Positions 43,168 to 53,135 of a stretch of 64,000 nucleotides of DNA are shown here, piece after piece. Numbering within the stretch: position 1 is the stretch's first letter; every line of letters starts with the position of its first letter. The notes beneath the pieces are model-generated. The model was not told where the DNA came from, did no database searches, and worked only from the letters and a program-made list of their open reading frames with translations. Origin of the DNA: an uncultured Thermoleophilaceae bacterium (GTDB taxonomy: Bacteria > Actinomycetota > Thermoleophilia > Solirubrobacterales > Thermoleophilaceae); contig CAWGUV010000010.1 in assembly GCA_963825775.1 (NCBI GenBank), positions 43,144 through 107,143 of the forward strand. Direction: 5' to 3'. Position numbers and translations under genes: made by a program.

Positions 43168-44016
43168 ATGGCCTTCCGTGGGACGAAGCAAGTGTGCGGG
43201 CTCGCGATCGCACTGATCTGGGCGCCGGCCGCATCGGCGGGAGTGCCCCACATCGTCCAGCCCGGCGAGACCCTGTGGTCGATAGCCGCGGGGAACAACC
43301 TCAGCACCCGCTACCTGGCCGCCACGAACGGCCTGTCGGAGACGTCGAACGTGGTGCTGGGATCGACCCTGGATATCCCCACCACGTCCGCTCCGCCCCC
43401 GGCGGGGGCCTACACGGTGCGCCCCGGCGACACGCTCAGCGGCATCGCGGCCCGCGCAGGGGTCGGCACGGCACAGGTCGCAGCGATGAACGGCTTGGCG
43501 GCGGACACCCATGTCATCTCGGGCACCGCTCTGAGGCTGCCGGCCACCTCGGCCCCGGCCGCTGCTCCCAGTCCCGCTCCCACCCGGGCACCCGCCGCCG
43601 CCCCGCAGGCGACGGGCGGCAGCGTGACGGCGGGCCAGATCGGCCAGATCGCCGCCGACCACGGCGTCTCCCCCTCCCTCGCGTCGGCGATCGCCTGGCA
43701 GGAGAGCGGGTTCAACAACAACCTCGTTTCATCCGCGAACGCGCGCGGTGTGATGCAGATCCTGCCGGGCACGTGGTCGTGGGTGGAGGGCAACATCGCC
43801 CGCCGCCGGATCGACCCCGCGTCGCCCCAGGAGAACGTGCACGTCGGGGTGATGTACCTCGACCGCCTCATCCGCGACGCGGGCGGAGACGTAACCCGCG
43901 GCCTTGCTGGCTACTACCAGGGCCCGGCGTCGGTGGCGCGCAACGGACTGCTGCCTGATACCCAGCGCTACGTGGACAACGTGGAGGCGCTGCGCTCCCG
44001 CTTCGGCGGCGAGTGA
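43168..44016 (+). CDS. Secreted 2xLysM + lytic transglycosylase (SLT) domain protein
   Basis: Signal peptide, two LysM units (HIVQPGETLWSIAAGNN..., YTVRPGDTLSGIAARAG...), and an SLT catalytic block AIAWQESGFNNNLVSSANARGVMQILPGTW. Confidence 0.85.
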   Translation: MAFRGTKQVCGLAIALIWAPAASAGVPHIVQPGETLWSIAAGNNLSTRYLAATNGLSETSNVVLGSTLDIPTTSAPPPAGAYTVRPGDTLSGIAARAGVGTAQVAAMNGLAADTHVISGTALRLPATSAPAAAPSPAPTRAPAAAPQATGGSVTAGQIGQIAADHGVSPSLASAIAWQESGFNNNLVSSANARGVMQILPGTWSWVEGNIARRRIDPASPQENVHVGVMYLDRLIRDAGGDVTRGLAGYYQGPASVARNGLLPDTQRYVDNVEALRSRFGGE

Positions 44017-44864
44017 GATTCCGCGCGGCCCTCCTGGCCGCGACAGTCCTTGCGTTGAGCGCTTCCGCCGCGGATGCGGCGGGGCGGTCGAACGTGGCCG
44101 CCGTTCAGGTGGCGATGCGCGCGCACGGGCTCTACGGCTCCACCGTCGACGGCGTCTACGGGCCGAGCACCCGTGCCGCCGTGCGTGCGTTTCAACGCCG
44201 GCGCGGGTTGACGCGGGACGGCATCGCCGGGCCGCAGACCCTCCGCGCGCTCGGGCGCCGCGGCCGGCCCCGGCTCGGGCGCCGCGCGATCCGAGTCGGC
44301 GCAACGGGCTTCGACGTCGCCGCGCTGCAGTTCCGCCTGGCATGGCGCGGCTTCCCATCGGGGCCGATCGACGGCGGCTACGGACCCCGTTCCGCCGCCG
44401 CCGTGCGCCGGTTCCAGCGCTGGGCCGGGCTGGGTGCCGATGGGGTGGCGGGCTCGGCCACGATCCGCGCCCTGCGCCGCCCCATCCGCCGCTCCCCCGT
44501 CCGGCTGTCCCGGCCCGTCGCCGCCCCGATCGGCGACCGCTTCCGCCCGCGCGGCAACCGCTTCCACACCGGGCTCGACTTCCCGGCGCCGCGCGGGCGC
44601 AACGTGCGGGCCGCCCGGGCGGGAACGGTGATCACCGGGGGCTTCAACGCGGGCGGCTACGGCAACGCCGTCGAGATCTCCCACGGGTTGGGCGTCACCA
44701 CCTTCTACGCGCACCTGAGCCGGATCACCGTGCGGCGCGGCGAGCGGGTCGCCGGCGGCGAACGCGTCGGAACGGTGGGCTCCACCGGCTTCTCGACCGG
44801 CCCGCACCTTCACTTCGAGCTGCGCCTGCGCGGCGCGATGCTCGACCCGCTCACCGGCCTTTAG
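44013..44864 (+). CDS. Secreted peptidoglycan-binding (2x PG_binding_1) M23 metallopeptidase
   Basis: VDGVYGPSTRAAVRAFQRRRGLTRDGIAGPQT and IDGGYGPRSAAAVRRFQRWAGLGADGVAG repeats. M23 motifs HTGLDF and GSTGFSTGPHLHFEL. GTGA overlap with the upstream gene. Confidence 0.85.
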   Translation: MRFRAALLAATVLALSASAADAAGRSNVAAVQVAMRAHGLYGSTVDGVYGPSTRAAVRAFQRRRGLTRDGIAGPQTLRALGRRGRPRLGRRAIRVGATGFDVAALQFRLAWRGFPSGPIDGGYGPRSAAAVRRFQRWAGLGADGVAGSATIRALRRPIRRSPVRLSRPVAAPIGDRFRPRGNRFHTGLDFPAPRGRNVRAARAGTVITGGFNAGGYGNAVEISHGLGVTTFYAHLSRITVRRGERVAGGERVGTVGSTGFSTGPHLHFELRLRGAMLDPLTGL

Positions 44865-44874
44865 GCTCCCGCCC

Positions 44875-45756
44875 GTGGACACGGTGACCTACGAGGTCGA
44901 CGGCCGGATCGCGCGCATCACGCTGAATCGACCGGAGCGCGGTAACGGCATCACCCTCGCAATGCCGCGCGAGCTCGCGGAGTGCGTGGAGCGGGCGAAC
45001 CTGGACCCCGCGGTCCACGTGATCGCGCTGGCGGGCAACGGGAAGGGCTTCTGCGGCGGCTACGACCTCGTCGAGTCGGCCCAGGAAGGGATGACGTCGG
45101 GCGCCCAGGGACCGCCCGGCTCCCCCCTCGACCCCGCGGTCCAGGCGGCCAACCACAACCCCGCAGAGAACTGGGACCCGGTGGTGGACTGGCAGATGAT
45201 GAGCCGCAACCTGCGCGGGTTCATGTCGCTGTTTCACTCCGACAAGCCGACCCTCTGCAAGGTGCACGGCTTCTGCGTGGCGGGCGGCACCGACATGGCG
45301 CTGTGCAGCGACCTGCTGGTGATGGCCGAGGACGCGCGCATCGGCTACCCGCCGGCACGGGTGTGGGGCGTGCCGACCTCGATGATGTGGGCGCAGCGCG
45401 TCGGCCCCGCGCGCGCCAAGCAGCTGCTGTTCACCGGTGACCTGATCGACGGGAAGACGGCCCACGAGTGGGGGCTGGCGCTGAGCGCTCCGCCCGCCGG
45501 TGAGCTCGACGTGCGCTTCGAGGAGCTGCTCGATCGGATCTCGCAGACGCCGATCAACCAGCTGGTGATGATGAAGCTGACCGTGAACCAGGCCCTCTAC
45601 GCGCAGGGCCTCCAGGCCACGCAGACGCTCGGGGTGGTCTTCGACGGCATCGCCCGCCACACGCCGGAGGGCTATGCCTTCCAGGCGAAGGCGGCAGCCG
45701 AGGGCTGGCAGGCCGCCGTGCGCGAGCGAGACGAGCCGTACGGCGACGCGAAGTGA
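44875..45756 (+). CDS. Enoyl-CoA hydratase/isomerase (crotonase) family protein
   Basis: RITLNRPERGNGIT...VIALAGNGKGFCGGYDL...KVHGFCVAGGTDMALCSDL. Confidence 0.85.
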   Translation: MDTVTYEVDGRIARITLNRPERGNGITLAMPRELAECVERANLDPAVHVIALAGNGKGFCGGYDLVESAQEGMTSGAQGPPGSPLDPAVQAANHNPAENWDPVVDWQMMSRNLRGFMSLFHSDKPTLCKVHGFCVAGGTDMALCSDLLVMAEDARIGYPPARVWGVPTSMMWAQRVGPARAKQLLFTGDLIDGKTAHEWGLALSAPPAGELDVRFEELLDRISQTPINQLVMMKLTVNQALYAQGLQATQTLGVVFDGIARHTPEGYAFQAKAAAEGWQAAVRERDEPYGDAK

Positions 45757-46439
45757 GCGGCAGGGCGAGGTTCAGCCTTGGGATAGGCGCTGTCGCCCTC
45801 ATCGCCATCCTCGCCGTGGCGGTGCCCAAGATCGATTTCGGGAGCGACGACGACTCCTCCGACCCCGTCGCCGAGACGACTCCGCCGCCGGCCGAGCCGG
45901 AGAAGCCCGAGAAGCCGGAGCCTGAGAAGCCGGTGGAGCCCGCGAAGCCCACGCCCCCGTCCAGCCCCGACGACGTGAAGGGAAACGAGCAGCGCTCGCT
46001 CACCCGCCCCGCCAACTTCCGCAAGGCGCTGGCGGTGCTCGAGCGCAGGCGGCGAACGACCGAGGGTGTCTTCGACGGCCTGCGCGTGGCCCCGGGCCGG
46101 ATCGACACGACGATCGAGACGAAGACCCGGAGGATGACCCTGCAGGTGCGGACCGACTTCAAGATCGGCTTCTCCACCGACCACGAGTTCCCAAACCGGC
46201 CCGACTTCCGCCGCTACGGCATCGTGGCGAAGGACGTCGACGTGCGGGCGCCGGCCCAGATCCTCGAGCGCATCGACGGCGTGCGCAAGGGCGAGAGCGC
46301 GGCCAGGGACATCGATTACGTGGTGATCCGCCGCGACATCATCGACTTCAAGGTGAATGTCTCCGCTTTCCTGCGCACAGGGCCGCCCCCGCGCGCCTTC
46401 TCGCAGGAGCCGGGTGAGCCGTTCCGCGTAATCGGCTGA
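45753..46439 (+). CDS. Hypothetical membrane-anchored protein with Pro/Glu/Lys-rich linker
   Basis: GTG start (GTGA overlap), TM GIGAVALIAILAVAV and linker PPAEPEKPEKPEPEKPVEPAKPTPP. The C-terminal domain has normal composition. No family recognised. Confidence 0.5.
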   Translation: MSGRARFSLGIGAVALIAILAVAVPKIDFGSDDDSSDPVAETTPPPAEPEKPEKPEPEKPVEPAKPTPPSSPDDVKGNEQRSLTRPANFRKALAVLERRRRTTEGVFDGLRVAPGRIDTTIETKTRRMTLQVRTDFKIGFSTDHEFPNRPDFRRYGIVAKDVDVRAPAQILERIDGVRKGESAARDIDYVVIRRDIIDFKVNVSAFLRTGPPPRAFSQEPGEPFRVIG

Positions 46440-46457
46440 TACCGTCCCGGGGTCTAA

Positions 46458-46592
46458 TTAGTCAGCCGAATCCGCCTGCGTCCTGCGTCGGCGGTACGGG
46501 GGAACCAAGAGTTGGGGCGAGTCGGCCGCGAGCGGCCGTAGCGCGAGAGCGCAAGCCCGTCAGCTAACCCCGGAGGCTCAATCGAGAGGGTC
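46458..46592 (+). promoter_or_regulatory. Cyclic-di-AMP riboswitch (ydaO/yuaA class)
   Basis: Sequence blocks GCCGAAUCC, GGUACGGGGGAACC, UUGGGGCGAGUC and CCCGUCAGCUAACCCCGGAGGC appear in the order and spacing of the pseudo-two-fold ydaO motif. They closely resemble the crystallised Thermoanaerobacter c-di-AMP riboswitch sequence as I recall it. The element lies in the 162-nt gap directly upstream of an M23 peptidase gene. Confidence 0.8.
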
Positions 46593-46601
46593 TGAACGGT
46601 C

Positions 46602-47711
46602 TTGACGCACGCGTACGCGCGCGCAACAGCCACATCGGTCGTATTGCTCCTCGCCACAGCCGGCGCGGCCCACGGGTCGGGCACGGGCAGTGGTGGCGCC
46701 GCCATGCCCGGAGCGCCGAAGCTGCGCGCCGTGAAGTGCATGTCGTCCGCGGACCTCGCGTGCGCCTCGCGCAGCCGGCTCGTTCGCGGCGGCACGGTGC
46801 GCCTCGGAGGCAGCGACCTCGACCAGGCCGCGAAGGTCGTGTTCCTCGGCGGCCGCACCCGCCGCGACGACGCCGCCGTGAGGGTGCGCAAGCCGCGCGC
46901 CAACCGGATCGACCTCGAGGTGCCCGTCAAGGCGCGCAGCGGCCGCATCATGGTGGTGGACAAGCTCGGTCGCAGAACCACCACGAGGCGCTCCTACCGG
47001 GTCGGCCGCGCGCCCGCCATCGACGTCGCGCCTGGCTCCGGCTTCTTCTTCGGCGGGCGGCGCAAGCCCACGGTCACCTTCACCGCCCGCGCCGCCGGAC
47101 CCACGACGATCGAGGTCGTCCGCCCCGGCGACGCGTCGGTGCTCACCACCTTCCAACACACGGCCACGGCCGGGCGCAACGTCGCCACCTGGAACGGCAA
47201 GGTCGGCTCCAAGCCGGCGCCCAGCGGCGCCTACGCGTTCCGCATCGCCGGAGCGGCGATGGCCTCGCAGACGGGCGGCACGTTCGCCATGTACGACCAC
47301 CTCTTCCCCATCCGCGGCAAGCACGACCTCGGCCAGTCAGAGACCAACAACTTCGGCGGCGGTCGCGGTCATCAGGGCCAGGACAACTTCGCCCGCTGCG
47401 GCACCCGAGTCGCCGCCGCGCGCGGCGGCAAGGTCCAGTACGCGGGCTACCACGGCCGGGCCGGCAACTACGTGGTGATCGACGGCGCCGGCACCGGTGT
47501 GGACTACACCTACATGCACCTGCGCAAGCCGCCGCTGGTGAGCACCGGCCAGCATGTGTTCACCGGCCAGAAGATCGGCGAGGTCGGCGACACCGGCCGC
47601 GCCAGCGGCTGCCATCTGCACTTCGAGATGTGGAGCGCGCCGGGCTGGTACGAGGGCGGCAAGCCCTTCGACCCGCTGCCCTCGCTCCAGCGCTGGGACG
47701 CGTACAGCTAG
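46602..47711 (+). CDS. Secreted M23 family metallopeptidase with N-terminal Ig-like/FlgD-like domains
   Basis: TTG start and signal peptide SVVLLLATAGAAHG. M23 motifs GHQGQDNF and GDTGRASGCHLHFEMW. Confidence 0.85.
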   Translation: MTHAYARATATSVVLLLATAGAAHGSGTGSGGAAMPGAPKLRAVKCMSSADLACASRSRLVRGGTVRLGGSDLDQAAKVVFLGGRTRRDDAAVRVRKPRANRIDLEVPVKARSGRIMVVDKLGRRTTTRRSYRVGRAPAIDVAPGSGFFFGGRRKPTVTFTARAAGPTTIEVVRPGDASVLTTFQHTATAGRNVATWNGKVGSKPAPSGAYAFRIAGAAMASQTGGTFAMYDHLFPIRGKHDLGQSETNNFGGGRGHQGQDNFARCGTRVAAARGGKVQYAGYHGRAGNYVVIDGAGTGVDYTYMHLRKPPLVSTGQHVFTGQKIGEVGDTGRASGCHLHFEMWSAPGWYEGGKPFDPLPSLQRWDAYS

Positions 47712-47762
47712 CGCTCCCGCCCTTGCGGGATTAGGATCGCCAGACCCGATCGATGGAGGGTC

Positions 47763-47921
47763 ATGAGCGACGAGAAGCCTGGCCAGGAGCAGTACCACCC
47801 GCCGGAGGTGGAGACGATTCCCACCGACTCCGGCCCGTCCGTGACCGCGGCCGGCGACTCCCCGGCACAGGACGGCCAGGGCGGCGGCCCCGAGTGGCGC
47901 CCGACCGAGAAGGACGAATGA
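47763..47921 (+). CDS. Small acidic peptide, paralogue 1 (52 aa), candidate RiPP precursor
   Basis: Hand translation: MSDEKPGQEQYHPPEVETIPTDSGPSVTAAGDSPAQDGQGGGPEWRPTEKDE*. GGAGG lies just upstream. Its stop overlaps the next peptide's ATG (ATGA). It is not called in the ORF track. Confidence 0.6.
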   Translation: MSDEKPGQEQYHPPEVETIPTDSGPSVTAAGDSPAQDGQGGGPEWRPTEKDE

Positions 47922-48079
47922 GCGCGGAGAAGCCGGGCGAGGAGCAGTACGACCCGCCCGAGGTCGAGCAGATTCCCACGGACGCCGGCCCATCGGTCAC
48001 GGCCGCCGGCGACTCCCCTTCGCAGGACGACGTTCCCGGCGTCGAGTGGCGCCCGAGCGTTCCCCCGGACGAGGACTGA
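47918..48079 (+). CDS. Small acidic peptide, paralogue 2 (53 aa), candidate RiPP precursor
   Basis: MSAEKPGEEQYDPPEVEQIPTDAGPSVTAAGDSPSQDDVPGVEWRPSVPPDED*. This is the C-terminal part of track ORF 47753..48079. Confidence 0.6.
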   Translation: MSAEKPGEEQYDPPEVEQIPTDAGPSVTAAGDSPSQDDVPGVEWRPSVPPDED

Positions 48080-48161
48080 GGGCCGCCGCCTGCCGCGACT
48101 GATCGACGAGAGCTTCACCCTCCGCCGCCTGGCCCGGCGGGCGGGGTGGCGCACGAGCCAC

Positions 48162-49514
48162 ATGCGAGCTCAGCCGCCGGAGCGCCCGGTGGGCGCCAAG
48201 CTCGAGCTGACCCACGCGTGCAACCTGCGCTGCGGGTTCTGTTACACCGATTCGCCCCGCCACACCCTGCTGCGCACACCCGACCTGCCCGACGAGGCGT
48301 GGCACCGGATCGCATCCGAGGCCGCCGACCTTGGTGTGATCGAGCTCGTCCTCACCGGCGGCGAGCCGTTCCTGCGCCGCGACCTGGTGCTCTCGCTGCT
48401 CGACGAGCTGTCAGGCCGCGACGTGGGGCTCACGCTCAACACCAACGGCTGGTTCGTGGACGATGAGATCGCCGACCGCCTCGCGGAGGTGCCCGGCCTC
48501 CAGGTGGACATCTCGATCGACGGCGCCACGCCCGCGCTCCACGACGCGTCACGCGGCGTACCGGGAAGCTGGCGTCGCGCCGTCGAGGCCGCGGGGCGCC
48601 TGCTGGACCGTGGTGTGCGCCTTCAGGTGGTGCATGTCGTCACGCCGGTCAACGAGGCGTTCTTCGAGTCGATGCTCGAGCAGATGTGGACCCTCGGCGC
48701 GACCTCGGTGCGGGCGACCCCGGTGGTCGAGGTCGGCGCGGCCGCCCGAGGAGGCCGGTGGCCGGTGAACCGCGATCGGCTGCGACGCACGATTCGCTCG
48801 TTCAAGAAGGCGCACGGCGACGGCATGCGCGTGACCCTGCAACACGGGAACGCGGGCGTGCTCGCCATCCACGATCACGCGGCGCCGGTGTCGATGCTCG
48901 TGCGCCCGGGCGGCGCGGTGCTCACGGACTCACTGCACCCGTTCCGGTTCGGCAACGCGCTGGAGGACGGGCTGGAGCAGTGCTGGCAGCGGATCGTGTC
49001 GGACTGGCGCGACCCCGAGATGTCGCGCTGGGCACGCTCCTTCCGGGGATCGCGTGACCTGGCGGACGGGAACCTGGTGCCCTACCTCAGCGACGAGGTG
49101 GAGGTGGGCGAGCGCGCCGAGGCGCCGTCACATATCTCCGACGCCGTTCCCGAACGCTCCCAGCCGCGAGACGACAGCGGCGACCCGGCCGAGAACCTCG
49201 CGCGCGCCCGTGACCACGTGCGCGGCCTGGCGCTGGACCGCCGCTACCGCATGGCGCCCGCGAAGCTGGGCGGCGGGCCGGAGGAGCACTACGTGCGCCA
49301 GCCCGAGAGCGGTCGCGTCGTGCGTCTCAATGCCTCGGCCATGGCGATGCTGCGCGAGCTCGACGACGGCTCGGGCGCCGAGGCGGTCGAGCGCCTGGCC
49401 GATCGCTGGGCCGGCATCGAACGCTCACGCCTGGAGGCCGACGTGCTGGCCACCGGCCGATCCCTCCTGCGCGAGGGGATCCTGCAGCCCGCCGGCGCAC
49501 CGGTCAACGCCTAG
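48162..49514 (+). CDS. Radical SAM enzyme with Cys-less SPASM-like region and C-terminal PqqD-like (RRE) domain
   Basis: 450 aa with the CX3CX2C motif in ELTHACNLRCGFCY and GGEPFL. The C-terminal ~75 aa are YVRQPESGRVVRLNASAMAMLRELDDGSGAEAVERLADRWAGIERSRLEADVLATGRSLLREGIL, which is PqqD-like. There are only 4 Cys in the whole protein. Confidence 0.85.
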   Translation: MRAQPPERPVGAKLELTHACNLRCGFCYTDSPRHTLLRTPDLPDEAWHRIASEAADLGVIELVLTGGEPFLRRDLVLSLLDELSGRDVGLTLNTNGWFVDDEIADRLAEVPGLQVDISIDGATPALHDASRGVPGSWRRAVEAAGRLLDRGVRLQVVHVVTPVNEAFFESMLEQMWTLGATSVRATPVVEVGAAARGGRWPVNRDRLRRTIRSFKKAHGDGMRVTLQHGNAGVLAIHDHAAPVSMLVRPGGAVLTDSLHPFRFGNALEDGLEQCWQRIVSDWRDPEMSRWARSFRGSRDLADGNLVPYLSDEVEVGERAEAPSHISDAVPERSQPRDDSGDPAENLARARDHVRGLALDRRYRMAPAKLGGGPEEHYVRQPESGRVVRLNASAMAMLRELDDGSGAEAVERLADRWAGIERSRLEADVLATGRSLLREGILQPAGAPVNA

Positions 49515-50076
49515 CGGCGTCCGCTATCTCACCCACCGTCGTCTGCCAGCCGCGTGTGAGGAGATGGTCCACGCTCTGGCGCTCGGACCGGCTGTGGTAG
49601 CTGCCTCCGCCCGCCTGCGGCCGGCCCGGGCAATCGCCCTTGCGGATCTCGGGCCAGGTCTCCCGGAACAGCGTGACCAGCTCGTCCTGAACCGCCCACC
49701 ACGCGTCCTTCAGCGTCTGCTCGCGGTCGAGCGCGACCTCCCGCTGAGCGATCACCTCACCCGTGTCGAAGTGCTCGTCCATGTGGTGGATAGTCACGCC
49801 GGCGGGCGTCCCCTCGAGCAGGCCCCAGAGCAACGCGTCCCAGCCGCGGTTGTGGGGCAGGAAGCTGTTGTGCAGGTTCACGGCCCGGCCGGGAAACCGC
49901 CCGAGCGCCCATGGCCTGACCCGGTGCAGGTACAGGTGGCTCACCACGAAGTCCGCGCGAAGCACCCGCGGGTCCACCGGCAGCAGCGGGCGCGACGTGC
50001 GGAACACCCGGTCCTCGACCTCGCGCAGGTGGGCAAGCACCGGCGAGTCGGCGCGGCCGAGGAAGAGCACGTCCAT
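49504..50076 (-). CDS. Formyltransferase-fold protein (Formyl_trans_N-like; sugar or peptide N-formyltransferase candidate)
   Basis: 190 aa with NLHNSFLPHNRGWD (HxSLLPxxRG-type motif) and VTIHHMDEHFDTGEVI (catalytic Asp block). Confidence 0.7.
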   Translation of the reverse strand: MDVLFLGRADSPVLAHLREVEDRVFRTSRPLLPVDPRVLRADFVVSHLYLHRVRPWALGRFPGRAVNLHNSFLPHNRGWDALLWGLLEGTPAGVTIHHMDEHFDTGEVIAQREVALDREQTLKDAWWAVQDELVTLFRETWPEIRKGDCPGRPQAGGGSYHSRSERQSVDHLLTRGWQTTVGEIADAARR

Positions 50077-50114
50077 GCCTCGAACCTATCGGCGGGGTGT
50101 GAAAGGGTGTTCCC

Positions 50115-50240
50115 ATGAGCGACCCCAAGAAGCCCCAGGACGATTACGATCCGCCCCAGGTCGAGCAGATCTCAACCGAGTCTGGACCGGCGGTGACCGC
50201 CGCGGGCAAGTCGCCTCCGGACGACGGCCCCGGCAACTAA
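50115..50240 (+). CDS. Small acidic peptide, paralogue 3 (41 aa), candidate RiPP precursor
   Basis: Hand translation: MSDPKKPQDDYDPPQVEQISTESGPAVTAAGKSPPDDGPGN*. It aligns residue-for-residue with paralogues 1 and 2 over the first 34 aa. It is not called in the ORF track. Confidence 0.55.
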   Translation: MSDPKKPQDDYDPPQVEQISTESGPAVTAAGKSPPDDGPGN

Positions 50241-51451
50241 CCCCCGGCCAGCGACTCGGCCAGCTGGGCCGCGTTCGCGGACCCGTCCCACAGGCGCAGC
50301 CTGTCCGCCAGCGCCGCGCTGCGGCGCGCGAACCGCGGCTGGTCCAGCACACGCCTGACCGCCGCCCTCACCGCCCCGTCTCGGCGGGCGGGAGGCCAAA
50401 CCGCCACCCCCACGCCCAGACGCTCGACGCGGTTCACACGCGCGGTCTGATCGATCCGGTACGGGGTCACCACCAGCGGGGTTCCGATCGCCAGCGCCTG
50501 GCAGAAGGTGAGGTGGCCTCCGTGCACCACGGCGGCGTCGGCGGCCTCCAGGCACTCGCGGTTGGGCAGCAGGGACGCGGCCCGGATCCGCGGCCCGAGC
50601 TCCTCGAGTTTCCCTGGATCGCAGAGGCCGCCCGTGGTCACGAGCACGTCCACGTCCTCCCCCGCCAGCTCCGTCACGGCCGTGGTGAGCAGATCCGCGC
50701 TTCCGGTCGATCCCTGCGTCACGTAGACGAGCGGGCGATCACCGCGACGTATCGGCGCGCCGGCGCCGGCTGGAGCCGACCAGGCCAGCGGGCCCACGTA
50801 GCTCCAGGTCGGCGGCAGTGCCTTCGCCGGATCGATGAAGGGCGCGCTGGTGATCGCGACCTGCGTGTCGCGCACGCCCCCTCGCGCGGGGTCGCCGTCG
50901 GCCCGGAGGCCGAGCAGGGGCCTGACGGCCCGAACGACGTCATGGGTGCGCGGCCCTGAAGGGGTTCCCCTCGCACGGCGTACTCGGGCCCGCATGACCC
51001 TGAGGGCGCGACGCGGCTTGCGCACGTCGCGCCGGCGGTCACCCCAGACGGTGGCGCGGCGCCCGTAGGGCGTGGTCTGGATGTAGTGCATCAGGTGCAG
51101 CTGGGGCACGCCGGAGACCTCGCAGGCCAGCTGCGCGGCCACGCCGGAGCTGGTGATCACGGCGTCGGGCGCGACGCTGTCGATCACGGATCGATGCGCG
51201 TCCACATGCTCCAGAAGGGAGGTCTCCGACGCGTACCAGCCCGCCGGGTGCCATTCCCGCTCCGGGATCACGTCGGGCACCCGGTGCAGCCGCAGGCCCT
51301 CGGCCTCGATCACGTCCGCGCGGGTGCCTCCGTACGCGATCTCGACCTCATGGCCGTGCTCGCGCAGGCGCCTGCCGACCTCGAGGCACGCTCCCAGGTG
51401 CGCGAGCCCCGAGGTTGGCGCATGGGGCGCCAGCAGGAACCGCGCCGTCAA
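50237..51451 (-). CDS. GT1 family (MGT/OleD-like) glycosyltransferase
   Basis: 404 aa GT-B protein. The C-terminal nucleotide-sugar motif region is AADAAVVHGGHLTFCQALAIGTPLVVTPYRIDQ. TTG start forms a TTGA overlap with the upstream CDF gene's stop. Confidence 0.8.
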   Translation of the reverse strand: MTARFLLAPHAPTSGLAHLGACLEVGRRLREHGHEVEIAYGGTRADVIEAEGLRLHRVPDVIPEREWHPAGWYASETSLLEHVDAHRSVIDSVAPDAVITSSGVAAQLACEVSGVPQLHLMHYIQTTPYGRRATVWGDRRRDVRKPRRALRVMRARVRRARGTPSGPRTHDVVRAVRPLLGLRADGDPARGGVRDTQVAITSAPFIDPAKALPPTWSYVGPLAWSAPAGAGAPIRRGDRPLVYVTQGSTGSADLLTTAVTELAGEDVDVLVTTGGLCDPGKLEELGPRIRAASLLPNRECLEAADAAVVHGGHLTFCQALAIGTPLVVTPYRIDQTARVNRVERLGVGVAVWPPARRDGAVRAAVRRVLDQPRFARRSAALADRLRLWDGSANAAQLAESLAGG

Positions 51452-52359
51452 TCGAGTCGCTCGATCTCGAGCAGGTGGTGAGGCTCACGCTCGTGCTCCA
51501 CCTGGAGCGTCGCGTGCTCGATGCCAAAGCGCTCGGCCAGCAGCTGGGACAGCTCGCGCCGGCGCGCGTGACAGTCGTCGCCCGGCGGGACCATCACGTG
51601 CGCGGACAGGGCGGGGAAGCCCGACGTGACCTCCCAGATGTGCAGGTCGTGCACCTCCTCCACGCCCGGATGAGCGGCCATGGCCTGCCCGATCTCTCGC
51701 GCGTCCATCCCCTTCGGCGTGCCCTCCAGCAGCACGCGGCCGGTGTCCCGCAGCAGCCCGAAGCCGCCCCACAGCATGAGGGCGCAGACGCTCAGCGCCG
51801 CTATCGCGTCGGCCTCGTCGAAGCCCGTGGTCACGATCAGCACGCCGGCCGCCGCCGCGGCCAGCGACGAGAGCAGGTCGGCCAGGTTGTGCAGGAAGGC
51901 GCCCTCCACGTTCAGGCTGGCCCGGTTGGCCCGCGCGAGGGCGAGCGCCGCGGCACCGTTGGCCACCGCGCCCGCCAGGCCCACGGCGATCACGAACGCG
52001 CCGTCCACGTCCATGGGGTCTCCGATCCGGCGCACCGCCTCGAACCCGATCACTCCCGCCAGCACCAGCAGGGCGGCGCCGTTCACCTGCGCGCTCAGGA
52101 TCTCGGTGCGCTTGAGCCCGAAAGTGAAGCGCCCGTCCGGAGGTCGCTCCGCGAGCTTCACGGCCGCCAGCGCCAGGGCGATGGCGCCGGCGTCGGTGAG
52201 CATGTGCGCGGCGTCGGAGATCAGGGCGACCGAGTTGGCGATCAGGCCCGCCGTGATCTCCACGGCCATGAAGCCGAGGTTGATCCACAGCGCGACCCAC
52301 AGCCAGCGCGGAGCCGCGGCGGCCGAGACCCCGTGCGAGTGATCGTGGTGTGCGCCCAT
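51448..52359 (-). CDS. Cation diffusion facilitator (CzcD/ZitB-like) metal efflux transporter
   Basis: His-rich N-terminus MGAHHDHSHG, TM2 motif ALISDAAHMLTD, TM5 LHNLADLL, and a cytoplasmic domain VHDLHIWEVTSG. The ORF is open upstream to 52770 in non-coding-looking sequence. Confidence 0.88.
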   Translation of the reverse strand: MGAHHDHSHGVSAAAAPRWLWVALWINLGFMAVEITAGLIANSVALISDAAHMLTDAGAIALALAAVKLAERPPDGRFTFGLKRTEILSAQVNGAALLVLAGVIGFEAVRRIGDPMDVDGAFVIAVGLAGAVANGAAALALARANRASLNVEGAFLHNLADLLSSLAAAAAGVLIVTTGFDEADAIAALSVCALMLWGGFGLLRDTGRVLLEGTPKGMDAREIGQAMAAHPGVEEVHDLHIWEVTSGFPALSAHVMVPPGDDCHARRRELSQLLAERFGIEHATLQVEHEREPHHLLEIERLD

Positions 52360-52361
52360 GG

Positions 52362-53135
52362 CTAGGGGTCTAACTCGCCCGCGAACAGGCCGAACACGGC
52401 ACCCTGGTCGTCCTGGGCCACGAACAGCTCGCCGGCCGGGACCGGCAGGATCGGCGACAGGCTCGCGCCGCCGAGCTCCTTTACCCGCGCCTCGTGCTCC
52501 TTCAGCCCCGCGGAGGCGAAGTACGGAGTCCAGTTCGGCGGCGCGTCCGTGCCCGGTTGCAGGCCCATAACCCCGCCGTTGAGCCATCCCTCGGAGTTCT
52601 TGAAGCTCCAGAACGACCCCTCTCCGCCCTCGGGCGCCTCGGTCGTCCACCCGAAGAGCTCGGTGTAGAAGGCGATCGCCGCGTCGGGGTCGCTTGTGCT
52701 GAGCTGGTTCCAGCTGAGCGCCCCCGGCACGTTCACCAGCTGGGCGCCCGCGTAGCCGATCGGCTGCCACATGGCCACCACCGCACCCTGCGGATCGGCG
52801 ATTACTGCTAGCCTGCCGCCTTCGCCGACGTCGGTGGGCTGCGCGAGCACGGTGCCTCCCAGGTCGACGGCGCGTCCGACGTCAGCTTCGGCGTCGGTGA
52901 CGGACACATAGCTCAGCCAGTTCGAGGGTATGCCCGCCTCACGCTGGTCGTCCGGCTGACTGATGATGCCGGCCACGATCTTTCCGTCGAGTAGGCAGCC
53001 GGTCCAGCCCCTGTAGGGCTCGCCGTGATCCCATCCGAAGAGCCCCGCGTAGAACGCCTTGCCCCTCTCGGGATCGGCGGCCGCCAAATCGACCGCACAG
53101 AAGGTTCCAGGCGTGTATTCCGACCGTTCGCCCAT
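52362..53135 (-). CDS. Two-domain VOC (glyoxalase/bleomycin-resistance fold) family protein
   Basis: 257 aa with an internal duplication: FYAGLFGWD...[17 protein letters not shown] and FYTELFGWT...[17 protein letters not shown]. Confidence 0.8.

Follow-up and report, generated by a model that had tools for sequence, protein, structure and literature searches.

A candidate RiPP class of Thermoleophilia built on a radical SAM enzyme without auxiliary-cluster cysteines and with a C-terminal recognition domain

The stretch of DNA analysed here (the window, 64,000 nucleotides of contig CAWGUV010000010.1 from an uncultured Thermoleophilaceae bacterium) carries the gene of a radical S-adenosylmethionine (SAM) enzyme that is fused to a C-terminal PqqD-like domain, a recognition element (RRE) for peptides that ribosomes synthesize and that are modified after translation (RiPPs), and it is flanked by short genes for precursor peptides (Table 1). 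We propose this locus as a candidate new RiPP class, a peptide natural-product system of Thermoleophilia soil bacteria. The plus-strand translation of 48162-49514 is uninterrupted over 450 amino acids and has a gene-like codon bias (GC content at third codon positions, GC3, of 0.90 in a window of about 72% GC), and it contains only four cysteines, exactly as a first-pass annotation made from the sequence had listed them: three in the cluster motif CX3CX2C (C20/C24/C27, ACNLRCGFC), and C274 in the context EQCWQRI. Pfam assigns residues 15-173 to Radical_SAM (PF04055, E 2.7e-23, 83.4 bits against a gathering cut-off of 29.5) and residues 378-441 to PqqD (E 9.8e-9), and the same search gave no match to SPASM (PF13186), even at E<=1. 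The acidic linker to a PqqD-like domain that the annotation had described was thus found again; the segment around residues 303-341 varies in length and sequence across the family alignment, and therefore we regard it as a linker. Judged by its sequence, the enzyme is a true radical SAM protein without auxiliary iron–sulfur sites and with its RRE at the C-terminus.

The strongest evidence on function comes from the precursor genes beside the enzyme, which the first-pass annotation had overlooked. The two peptides encoded upstream, A and B, are both Cys-free and share 76% identity. A scan for related loci, which considered one genome per species, gave 80 related loci, and 77 of these contain one to six motif-bearing small open reading frames each. 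With the three in the window there are 171 such frames, all on the strand of the enzyme gene, and those of the related loci lie upstream in 147 and downstream in 21 cases. The 170 unique peptides have lengths of 31-55 amino acids and follow the motif Y1-E-[AP]-P4-x-V6-E7-[EQD]-[IVL]9 ... P15-x-x-T18-A-[AP]-G21, with Y1, P4, V6, E7, P15, T18 and G21 as the conserved positions, and Thr18 is the most conserved residue after the leader (154/170). The tails that follow usually comprise 4-12 residues, are rich in Ser, Pro, Thr and Gly, and in many cases terminate in Ser; in the subclade of the window they are longer and bear an E-W-R-P motif. Trp, Tyr, Phe, His and Cys each account for at most 0.5% of the tails, and this near-absence of aromatic residues and cysteines speaks against a family-wide chemistry of cross-links through Cys or aromatic side chains. 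A comparison of the precursors with NCBIfam gave no matches. We consider it very probable that the enzyme is an RRE-guided RiPP maturase that acts on these adjacent peptides.

Table 1. Positions of the enzyme gene, its domains, the peptide genes and the neighbouring genes in the window.
Feature	Position	Strand	Basis
Radical SAM-RRE fusion enzyme, 450 aa counted from ATG	48162..49514	+	Translation, Pfam, codon bias
Radical SAM core, residues 15-173, CX3CX2C C20/C24/C27	48204..48680	+	PF04055
Putative cluster-less twitch/SPASM-like remnant, residues ~228-302, with hairpin 244-254, GN..E....C274-W275 helix, invariant W275/W282/W290	48843..49067	+	AlphaFold2, SkfB alignment, Foldseek, sister family
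Acidic linker of variable length, residues ~303-341	49068..49184	+	Poor conservation in family alignment, pLDDT 65-80
C-terminal helix and PqqD-like RRE, residues ~342-441	49185..49484	+	Pfam PqqD, TfuB1 profile match, lasso_PqqD_Strm
Probable N-terminal extension LPRLIDESFTLRRLARRAGWRTSH, start CTG 48090	48090..48161	+	In frame, protein-level conservation with homologs
Precursor peptide gene A, 52 aa, MSDEKPGQEQYHPPEVETIPTDSGPSVTAAGDSPAQDGQGGGPEWRPTEKDE	47763..47921	+	Sequence read, family motif match
Precursor peptide gene B, 53 aa, MSAEKPGEEQYDPPEVEQIPTDAGPSVTAAGDSPSQDDVPGVEWRPSVPPDED	47918..48079	+	Start overlaps stop of A (ATGA); family motif
Third precursor-like gene C, 41 aa, MSDPKKPQDDYDPPQVEQISTESGPAVTAAGKSPPDDGPGN	50115..50240	+	Motif search, precursor alignment; arrangement as in L001
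Formyltransferase-like gene, 190 aa, nearest to sugar N-formyltransferases and ArnA	49504-50076	-	
GT1 glycosyltransferase, macrolide-GT family	50237-51451	-	
Cell-wall hydrolase genes LysM+SLT, PG_binding+M23, M23, just upstream of the precursors	43168-44016, 44013-44864, 46602-47711	+	

The leader and the RRE both point to the lasso-peptide world. Discrete lasso-peptide RREs recognize the sequence [Y/W]xxPx[LVIAFY], which is also found in pyrroloquinoline quinone (PQQ) and 'LPP' precursors (PMC13381572; PMC12710340), and sequence comparison places the fused RRE nearest to lasso B1 chaperones. With its C-terminal part, the family profile matches the lasso B1 protein TfuB1 (6jx3, E 7e-6), and the best NCBIfam model for the domain is lasso_PqqD_Strm (NF033530), the Streptomyces-type lasso PqqD chaperone, with E-values of 1.5e-4 for the RRE of the window and 3.3e-10 for that of a Solirubrobacterales homolog, neither match reaching the cut-off of the model. 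Lasso B1 chaperone, paeninodin-like and LPP systems resemble the present family in the RRE type, in the leader and in two companions that occur in relatives of the window. One is an adjacent P-loop protein of about 300 amino acids, kinase-like and weakly related to HprK (E ~3e-4, far below the cut-off), which is present in 56/80 related loci; the other is an NTP_transf_5 protein (E 9e-38) in 14/80, and enzymes of these two types are what paeninodin-like lasso and LPP clusters typically have as their tailoring pair (PMC13381572). As neither of the two is encoded in the window (genes at 43168-53135) or in L001-L003, the related loci closest to it, gene content indicates that the minimal module is one or more precursors plus the fusion enzyme. 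In contrast to lasso systems, the RRE is fused to a radical SAM protein and comes without a lasso cyclase, a B2 protease or a SipW-like peptidase; neither an Asn-synthetase-like lasso cyclase nor a B2 peptidase was found at 43168-53135 or among the conserved neighbours of the 80 loci.

The enzyme belongs to a large family that existing models do not cover. A search of protein collections gave at least 626 homolog clusters, and an exhaustive profile search gave 336 representatives at E<1e-30. The Cys pattern was read in 120 listed homologs, which are mostly 434-527 amino acids long, with a few truncated, and nearly all of which contain Radical_SAM and PqqD, a few being without a recorded PqqD match; their source labels are 'radical SAM protein' or 'PqqD family peptide modification chaperone' only. 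All full-length members of this set contain CX3CX2C, and only two of them are without a Cys at +247, the position of C274; many of the homologs have an additional Cys at +128, and a twitch or SPASM Cys set occurs in none. The Cys-poor pattern is thus family-wide, which refutes the concern, raised in the first-pass annotation, that a frame error might hide a Cys-rich segment. The same annotation had called C274 isolated, and it is indeed the only Cys outside the radical SAM motif, but its near-invariance among close relatives means that it is not incidental. Invariant across the alignment are also FCYTDSPR, RGVPGSWRR, GAAAR, P260-F261, G264, C274-W275, W282 and W290. The matches to NCBIfam are confined to the N-terminal core (MftC, Rv1681, ScmF, StsB, AhbD, PqqE and SkfB), and each of them is far below the curated cut-off, for example with 90 versus 265 for MftC, 68 versus 381 for PqqE and 63 versus 300 for SkfB (TIGR04403). 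The earlier suggestion of a new subfamily is supported, because neither NCBIfam nor Pfam holds a family-specific model and the cut-offs of all known families were missed, and a literature search found no paper describing the family.

All 80 related loci come from metagenome-assembled genomes (MAGs) of Thermoleophilia, namely of Solirubrobacterales, Thermoleophilaceae, Gaiellaceae and Conexibacter. With one Thermoleophilaceae MAG, in which three paralogous loci occur, the window shares 99% identity. The Thermoleophilaceae MAG CAWEEH01 has three paralogous enzyme and precursor loci, L001, L008 and L074.

What follows the radical SAM core had been read in the first-pass annotation as a SPASM/twitch-like region with replaced ligands, and this reading holds in part. 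An AlphaFold2 model of the 450-residue protein, calculated from 27 sequences (mean predicted local distance difference test score, pLDDT, 87.6; predicted template modelling score, pTM, 0.89), shows a partial barrel, a beta-hairpin (244-247/252-254), then helices (266-302) and a lower-confidence linker. A Foldseek comparison with the PDB, the check that the annotation had suggested along with the structure prediction, places SkfB first (6efn, E 8.4e-14) and SuiB second, followed by viperin, MoaA, anSME, CteB, PqqE, EpeE, DesII and BlsE, with EpeE only at about rank 35. SkfB, an RRE-containing RiPP maturase with a twitch domain, is also the best solved-structure match at the profile level (family profile against 6efn, E 3.8e-26), and the alignment spans the twitch hairpin, with Ala, Pro, Asp or Ser in place of the SkfB cysteines. 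However, SkfB has an N-terminal RRE-like domain and an auxiliary cluster bound through twitch cysteines, neither of which is a feature of our enzyme, and EpeE/YydG likewise carries an auxiliary [4Fe-4S] cluster in a T-SPASM domain for which our enzyme lacks the ligand cysteines. Against the SPASM/twitch assignment count the missing PF13186 match mentioned above and the finding that a profile of residues 215-305 alone retrieved no SPASM/twitch protein and no meaningful match among PDB sequences. The support for reading the post-barrel region as a cluster-less remnant of a SPASM/twitch domain therefore comes from collinearity, from the fold of the model and from a sister family (see below), and not from independent sequence significance. 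As the enzyme core is most similar to SPASM/twitch families in NCBIfam, PDB and Foldseek comparisons alike, we infer an origin of the enzyme within the SPASM/twitch branch (SkfB-, MftC-, PqqE-like), with loss of the residues that bind the cluster.

The sister family was found in the exhaustive profile search and consists of radical SAM proteins of about 360 amino acids with the motif 'CNLxCxHCYNxSG', the same core and a cluster-less hairpin domain. In place of C274 these proteins keep one Cys where the hairpin canonically has it ('DC..PF..GN'), and this Cys aligns to S257. PqqD is separate or fused in this family, and most members are without a fused RRE; one member has a YERPLV precursor. The names of the sister-family proteins are uninformative, and all NCBIfam cut-offs were missed here as well. 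At one sister-family locus (L083, 5001-8250), a cluster-less radical SAM protein of about 360 amino acids, a separate PqqD and a B12-binding radical SAM protein are encoded consecutively, a gene set that is reminiscent of proteusin-type hypermodification. Among divergent relatives of the enzyme itself, the sequences look like a stepwise decay of the twitch domain.

The first-pass annotation had implied that the combination of a cluster-less enzyme and a C-terminal RRE is unprecedented, and this does not hold. The proteusin epimerases PoyD and OspD are peptide-modifying radical SAM enzymes in which the radical SAM (RS) cluster is the only one, the RRE lies at the C-terminus and a single Cys is critical (PMC8326336; PMC13012085; PMC7470986), and our enzyme shares with PoyD, OspD and CcaD the RS cluster motif as the sole one and the fused C-terminal RRE; like them it has a Cys outside the motif, which is nearly invariant among its close homologs. 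The substrates of these three are modified at aliphatic or small residues, and the cores of the precursors described here are composed likewise. Nevertheless, membership in the PoyD family was rejected: in comparisons with PoyD and CcaD sequences taken from an OCR-read (optical character recognition) paper supplement, the match was limited to CX3CX2C, with 5.8 bits in hmmsearch and an hhalign probability of 17% over 39 columns. PoyD is moreover not captured by PF04055 (PMC9477430), to which the enzyme of the window scores 83 bits. The two groups also differ in their substrates, as proteusin precursors have long NHLP/Nif11 leaders in contrast to the short peptides with YxxPxV found here, and in the position of the critical Cys, as C372 of PoyD lies before the hairpin and C274 on the helix after it. 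Because homology to PoyD is absent beyond the cluster motif and PoyD falls outside PF04055, the sequences indicate that the likeness of the layout is convergent.

As a whole, the observations are in our opinion best explained by a single-cluster radical SAM maturase that performs redox-neutral Calpha chemistry on the adjacent peptides, a reading that we put forward tentatively and with less than even confidence. The C-terminal RRE would bind the YxxPxV leader as an added beta-strand, and the flexible acidic linker would let it present the T-A-A-G segment and the tail to the barrel. The 5'-deoxyadenosyl radical would then abstract a hydrogen, most plausibly from Calpha, of a residue in or after T-A-A-G, and with no auxiliary cluster to take up an electron or a thiol, the substrate radical would be resolved without net oxidation. 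If, as the likeliest resolution, Cys274 returned a hydrogen atom to the opposite face, the outcome would be an L-to-D epimerization as in PoyD, OspD and EpeE, a reaction that requires a Cys as H-donor and involves no net oxidation (PMC8326336; PMC13012085). We propose epimerization with C274 as H-atom donor because the auxiliary clusters are lost, a single Cys is conserved, the cores consist of aliphatic and small residues and PoyD and OspD set a precedent, but by analogy with these enzymes it is a possibility that we would still call doubtful.

Several points weigh against such a redox-neutral mechanism. The characterized homologs that are closest to the enzyme, SkfB, MftC and PqqE, all carry out oxidative chemistry, and the epimerases PoyD and CcaD share no homology with it outside the cluster motif. 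C274 is present in only 14/26 divergent full-length relatives, and several of the 26 lack a Cys at both candidate sites, which weakens the idea of a universal Cys H-donor. Finally, the pairing with an HprK-like kinase and NTP_transf_5 in relatives may mean that the chemistry of the family is linked to phosphorylation; the window has neither gene. It is also conceivable, and in our judgement about equally tentative as epimerization, that the enzyme and its YExPxVEE...TAAG peptides constitute a new RiPP class, near-universal in Thermoleophilia, in which the cluster-less twitch domain supports an undescribed radical SAM chemistry, such as backbone scission or a Thr/Ala-centred rearrangement at T-A-A-G, and not epimerization.

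Among the more specific alternatives, an oxidative modification without auxiliary cluster survives best. The product would be a cross-link (a Thr-derived ether or a C-C bond) or an alpha,beta-dehydro residue at or near Thr18-Ala-Ala-Gly, and the second electron would go to the RS cluster or to an acceptor from outside. The nearest characterized relatives, including the sactisynthases besides SkfB, MftC and PqqE, perform two-electron oxidations of peptides, and the outstanding conservation of Thr18 would fit such a target. Yet the ligands of the auxiliary cluster are lost family-wide, and the tails offer no conserved partner residue and almost no aromatics or cysteines, and we regard this chemistry as unlikely.

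Somewhat less probable still is a lyase-type dehydration or phosphate elimination on Ser/Thr or phospho-Ser/Thr in the manner of viperin, DesII and BlsE, coupled to the HprK-like kinase in other clades. These three single-cluster enzymes are among the Foldseek and hidden Markov model neighbours of the enzyme, the tails are rich in Ser and Thr with many ending in Ser, and the frequency of the HprK-like and NTP_transf_5 proteins in related loci would be accounted for. The window and L001-L003, however, have no kinase, and the HprK assignment itself is weak.

We consider it improbable that the enzyme cleaves the peptide backbone, with Calpha hydrogen abstraction in T-A-A-G in the absence of an H-donor freeing the tail or the leader. 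Such a scission would explain the missing leader peptidase, as no conserved protease was found among the neighbours across the 80 loci, some divergent members are without a candidate donor Cys, and EpeE without its H-donor Cys was reported to break its peptide (PMC8326336). But scission is without precedent as a native function, C274 hardly varies among the close family members, and the gene of a leader peptidase often lies in another part of the genome. An artefact or a decayed gene, be it a frame error that masks a Cys-rich SPASM segment or an inactive pseudo-enzyme, is suggested by nothing but the low Cys count and is extremely unlikely in view of the open frame and its codon bias, the hundreds of collinear full-length homologs with the same Cys pattern, the invariant CX3CX2C and core motifs, and the confident models (pLDDT 87.6 and 92.8).

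If the reading as a single-cluster maturase with redox-neutral Calpha chemistry is correct, the locus represents an untouched RiPP system of a soil class that is poorly cultured, and most genomes of Solirubrobacterales and Thermoleophilaceae contain this system, often in several copies each. The enzyme would then be a second, independently evolved single-cluster radical SAM protein with a C-terminal RRE, and it would become testable whether the loss of auxiliary clusters predicts redox-neutral chemistry such as epimerization. As a minimal system of one enzyme with its own RRE and peptides of 31-55 amino acids, it should also be easy to reconstitute and is a potential tool for the modification of short peptides.

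The residue numbers used above count from the ATG at 48162, but homologs indicate that translation probably starts at CTG 48090, 24 codons further 5', which would give an enzyme of 474 and not 450 amino acids. The extension is the counterpart of the conserved N-terminus of the homologs, and relatives have ATG or TTG where the window has this CTG. Within the extension, the related locus L003 differs from the window by six synonymous and three conservative changes, and it is without the ATG of the window, because GAC occupies that codon. A Shine-Dalgarno-like GAGGG lies 7 nt upstream of the CTG, and no in-frame ATG, GTG or TTG for the conserved extension is available in 48090-48161. The model of the 474-residue protein has a pLDDT of 92.8 and N-terminal helices at 2-7 and 9-17; its higher pLDDT relative to the 450-residue model is only suggestive, bearing in mind that the two models were calculated from different alignments. 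A scan of 47600-50400 for promoters and terminators found nothing.

The surroundings of the module differ between clades. In the window, gene C lies between the minus-strand formyltransferase-like and GT1 genes, an arrangement that is also seen in L001 but not in L003. The formyltransferase-like and GT1 genes could provide a subclade-specific glycosyl tailoring, or they could be unrelated to the peptides. The M23 gene at 46602-47711 adjoins L001 and L003 as well, and an M23 gene is also found near the sister-family locus L084. Synteny with lipB-lipA is frequent in the 80 related loci. The Solirubrobacterales module of HprK-like gene, precursors and fusion enzyme occupies a fixed chromosomal site, with lipB-lipA and an E2 acyltransferase gene directly upstream of it (L007, L010-L015, about 40/80 loci), which suggests vertical inheritance and not a mobile biosynthetic gene cluster. 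A cation-efflux gene (cluster c14) near four loci was judged to be housekeeping synteny and outside the system. Many Solirubrobacterales homologs (e.g., P0070, P0083, P0110) have a conserved post-RRE tail, E-x-G-T-[ST]-D-L-P-G-x-E-P-x-G, within the C-terminal 15-20 residues; this tail, which is not in the window protein, may serve in docking to the HprK-like partner.

Two kinds of precursors depart from the common pattern. Only in L008 and L022 do the precursors have a Cys right after Thr18 (ETCAMIVTDS and DTCALVSTLAD). Some Conexibacter-type precursors (L066, 6987-7193; L079, 3586-3762 and 4329-4511) have a long basic C-terminal extension, for example ...SDLRLKRSLRPLEGATPRLR, which may represent a different core type or a follower peptide.

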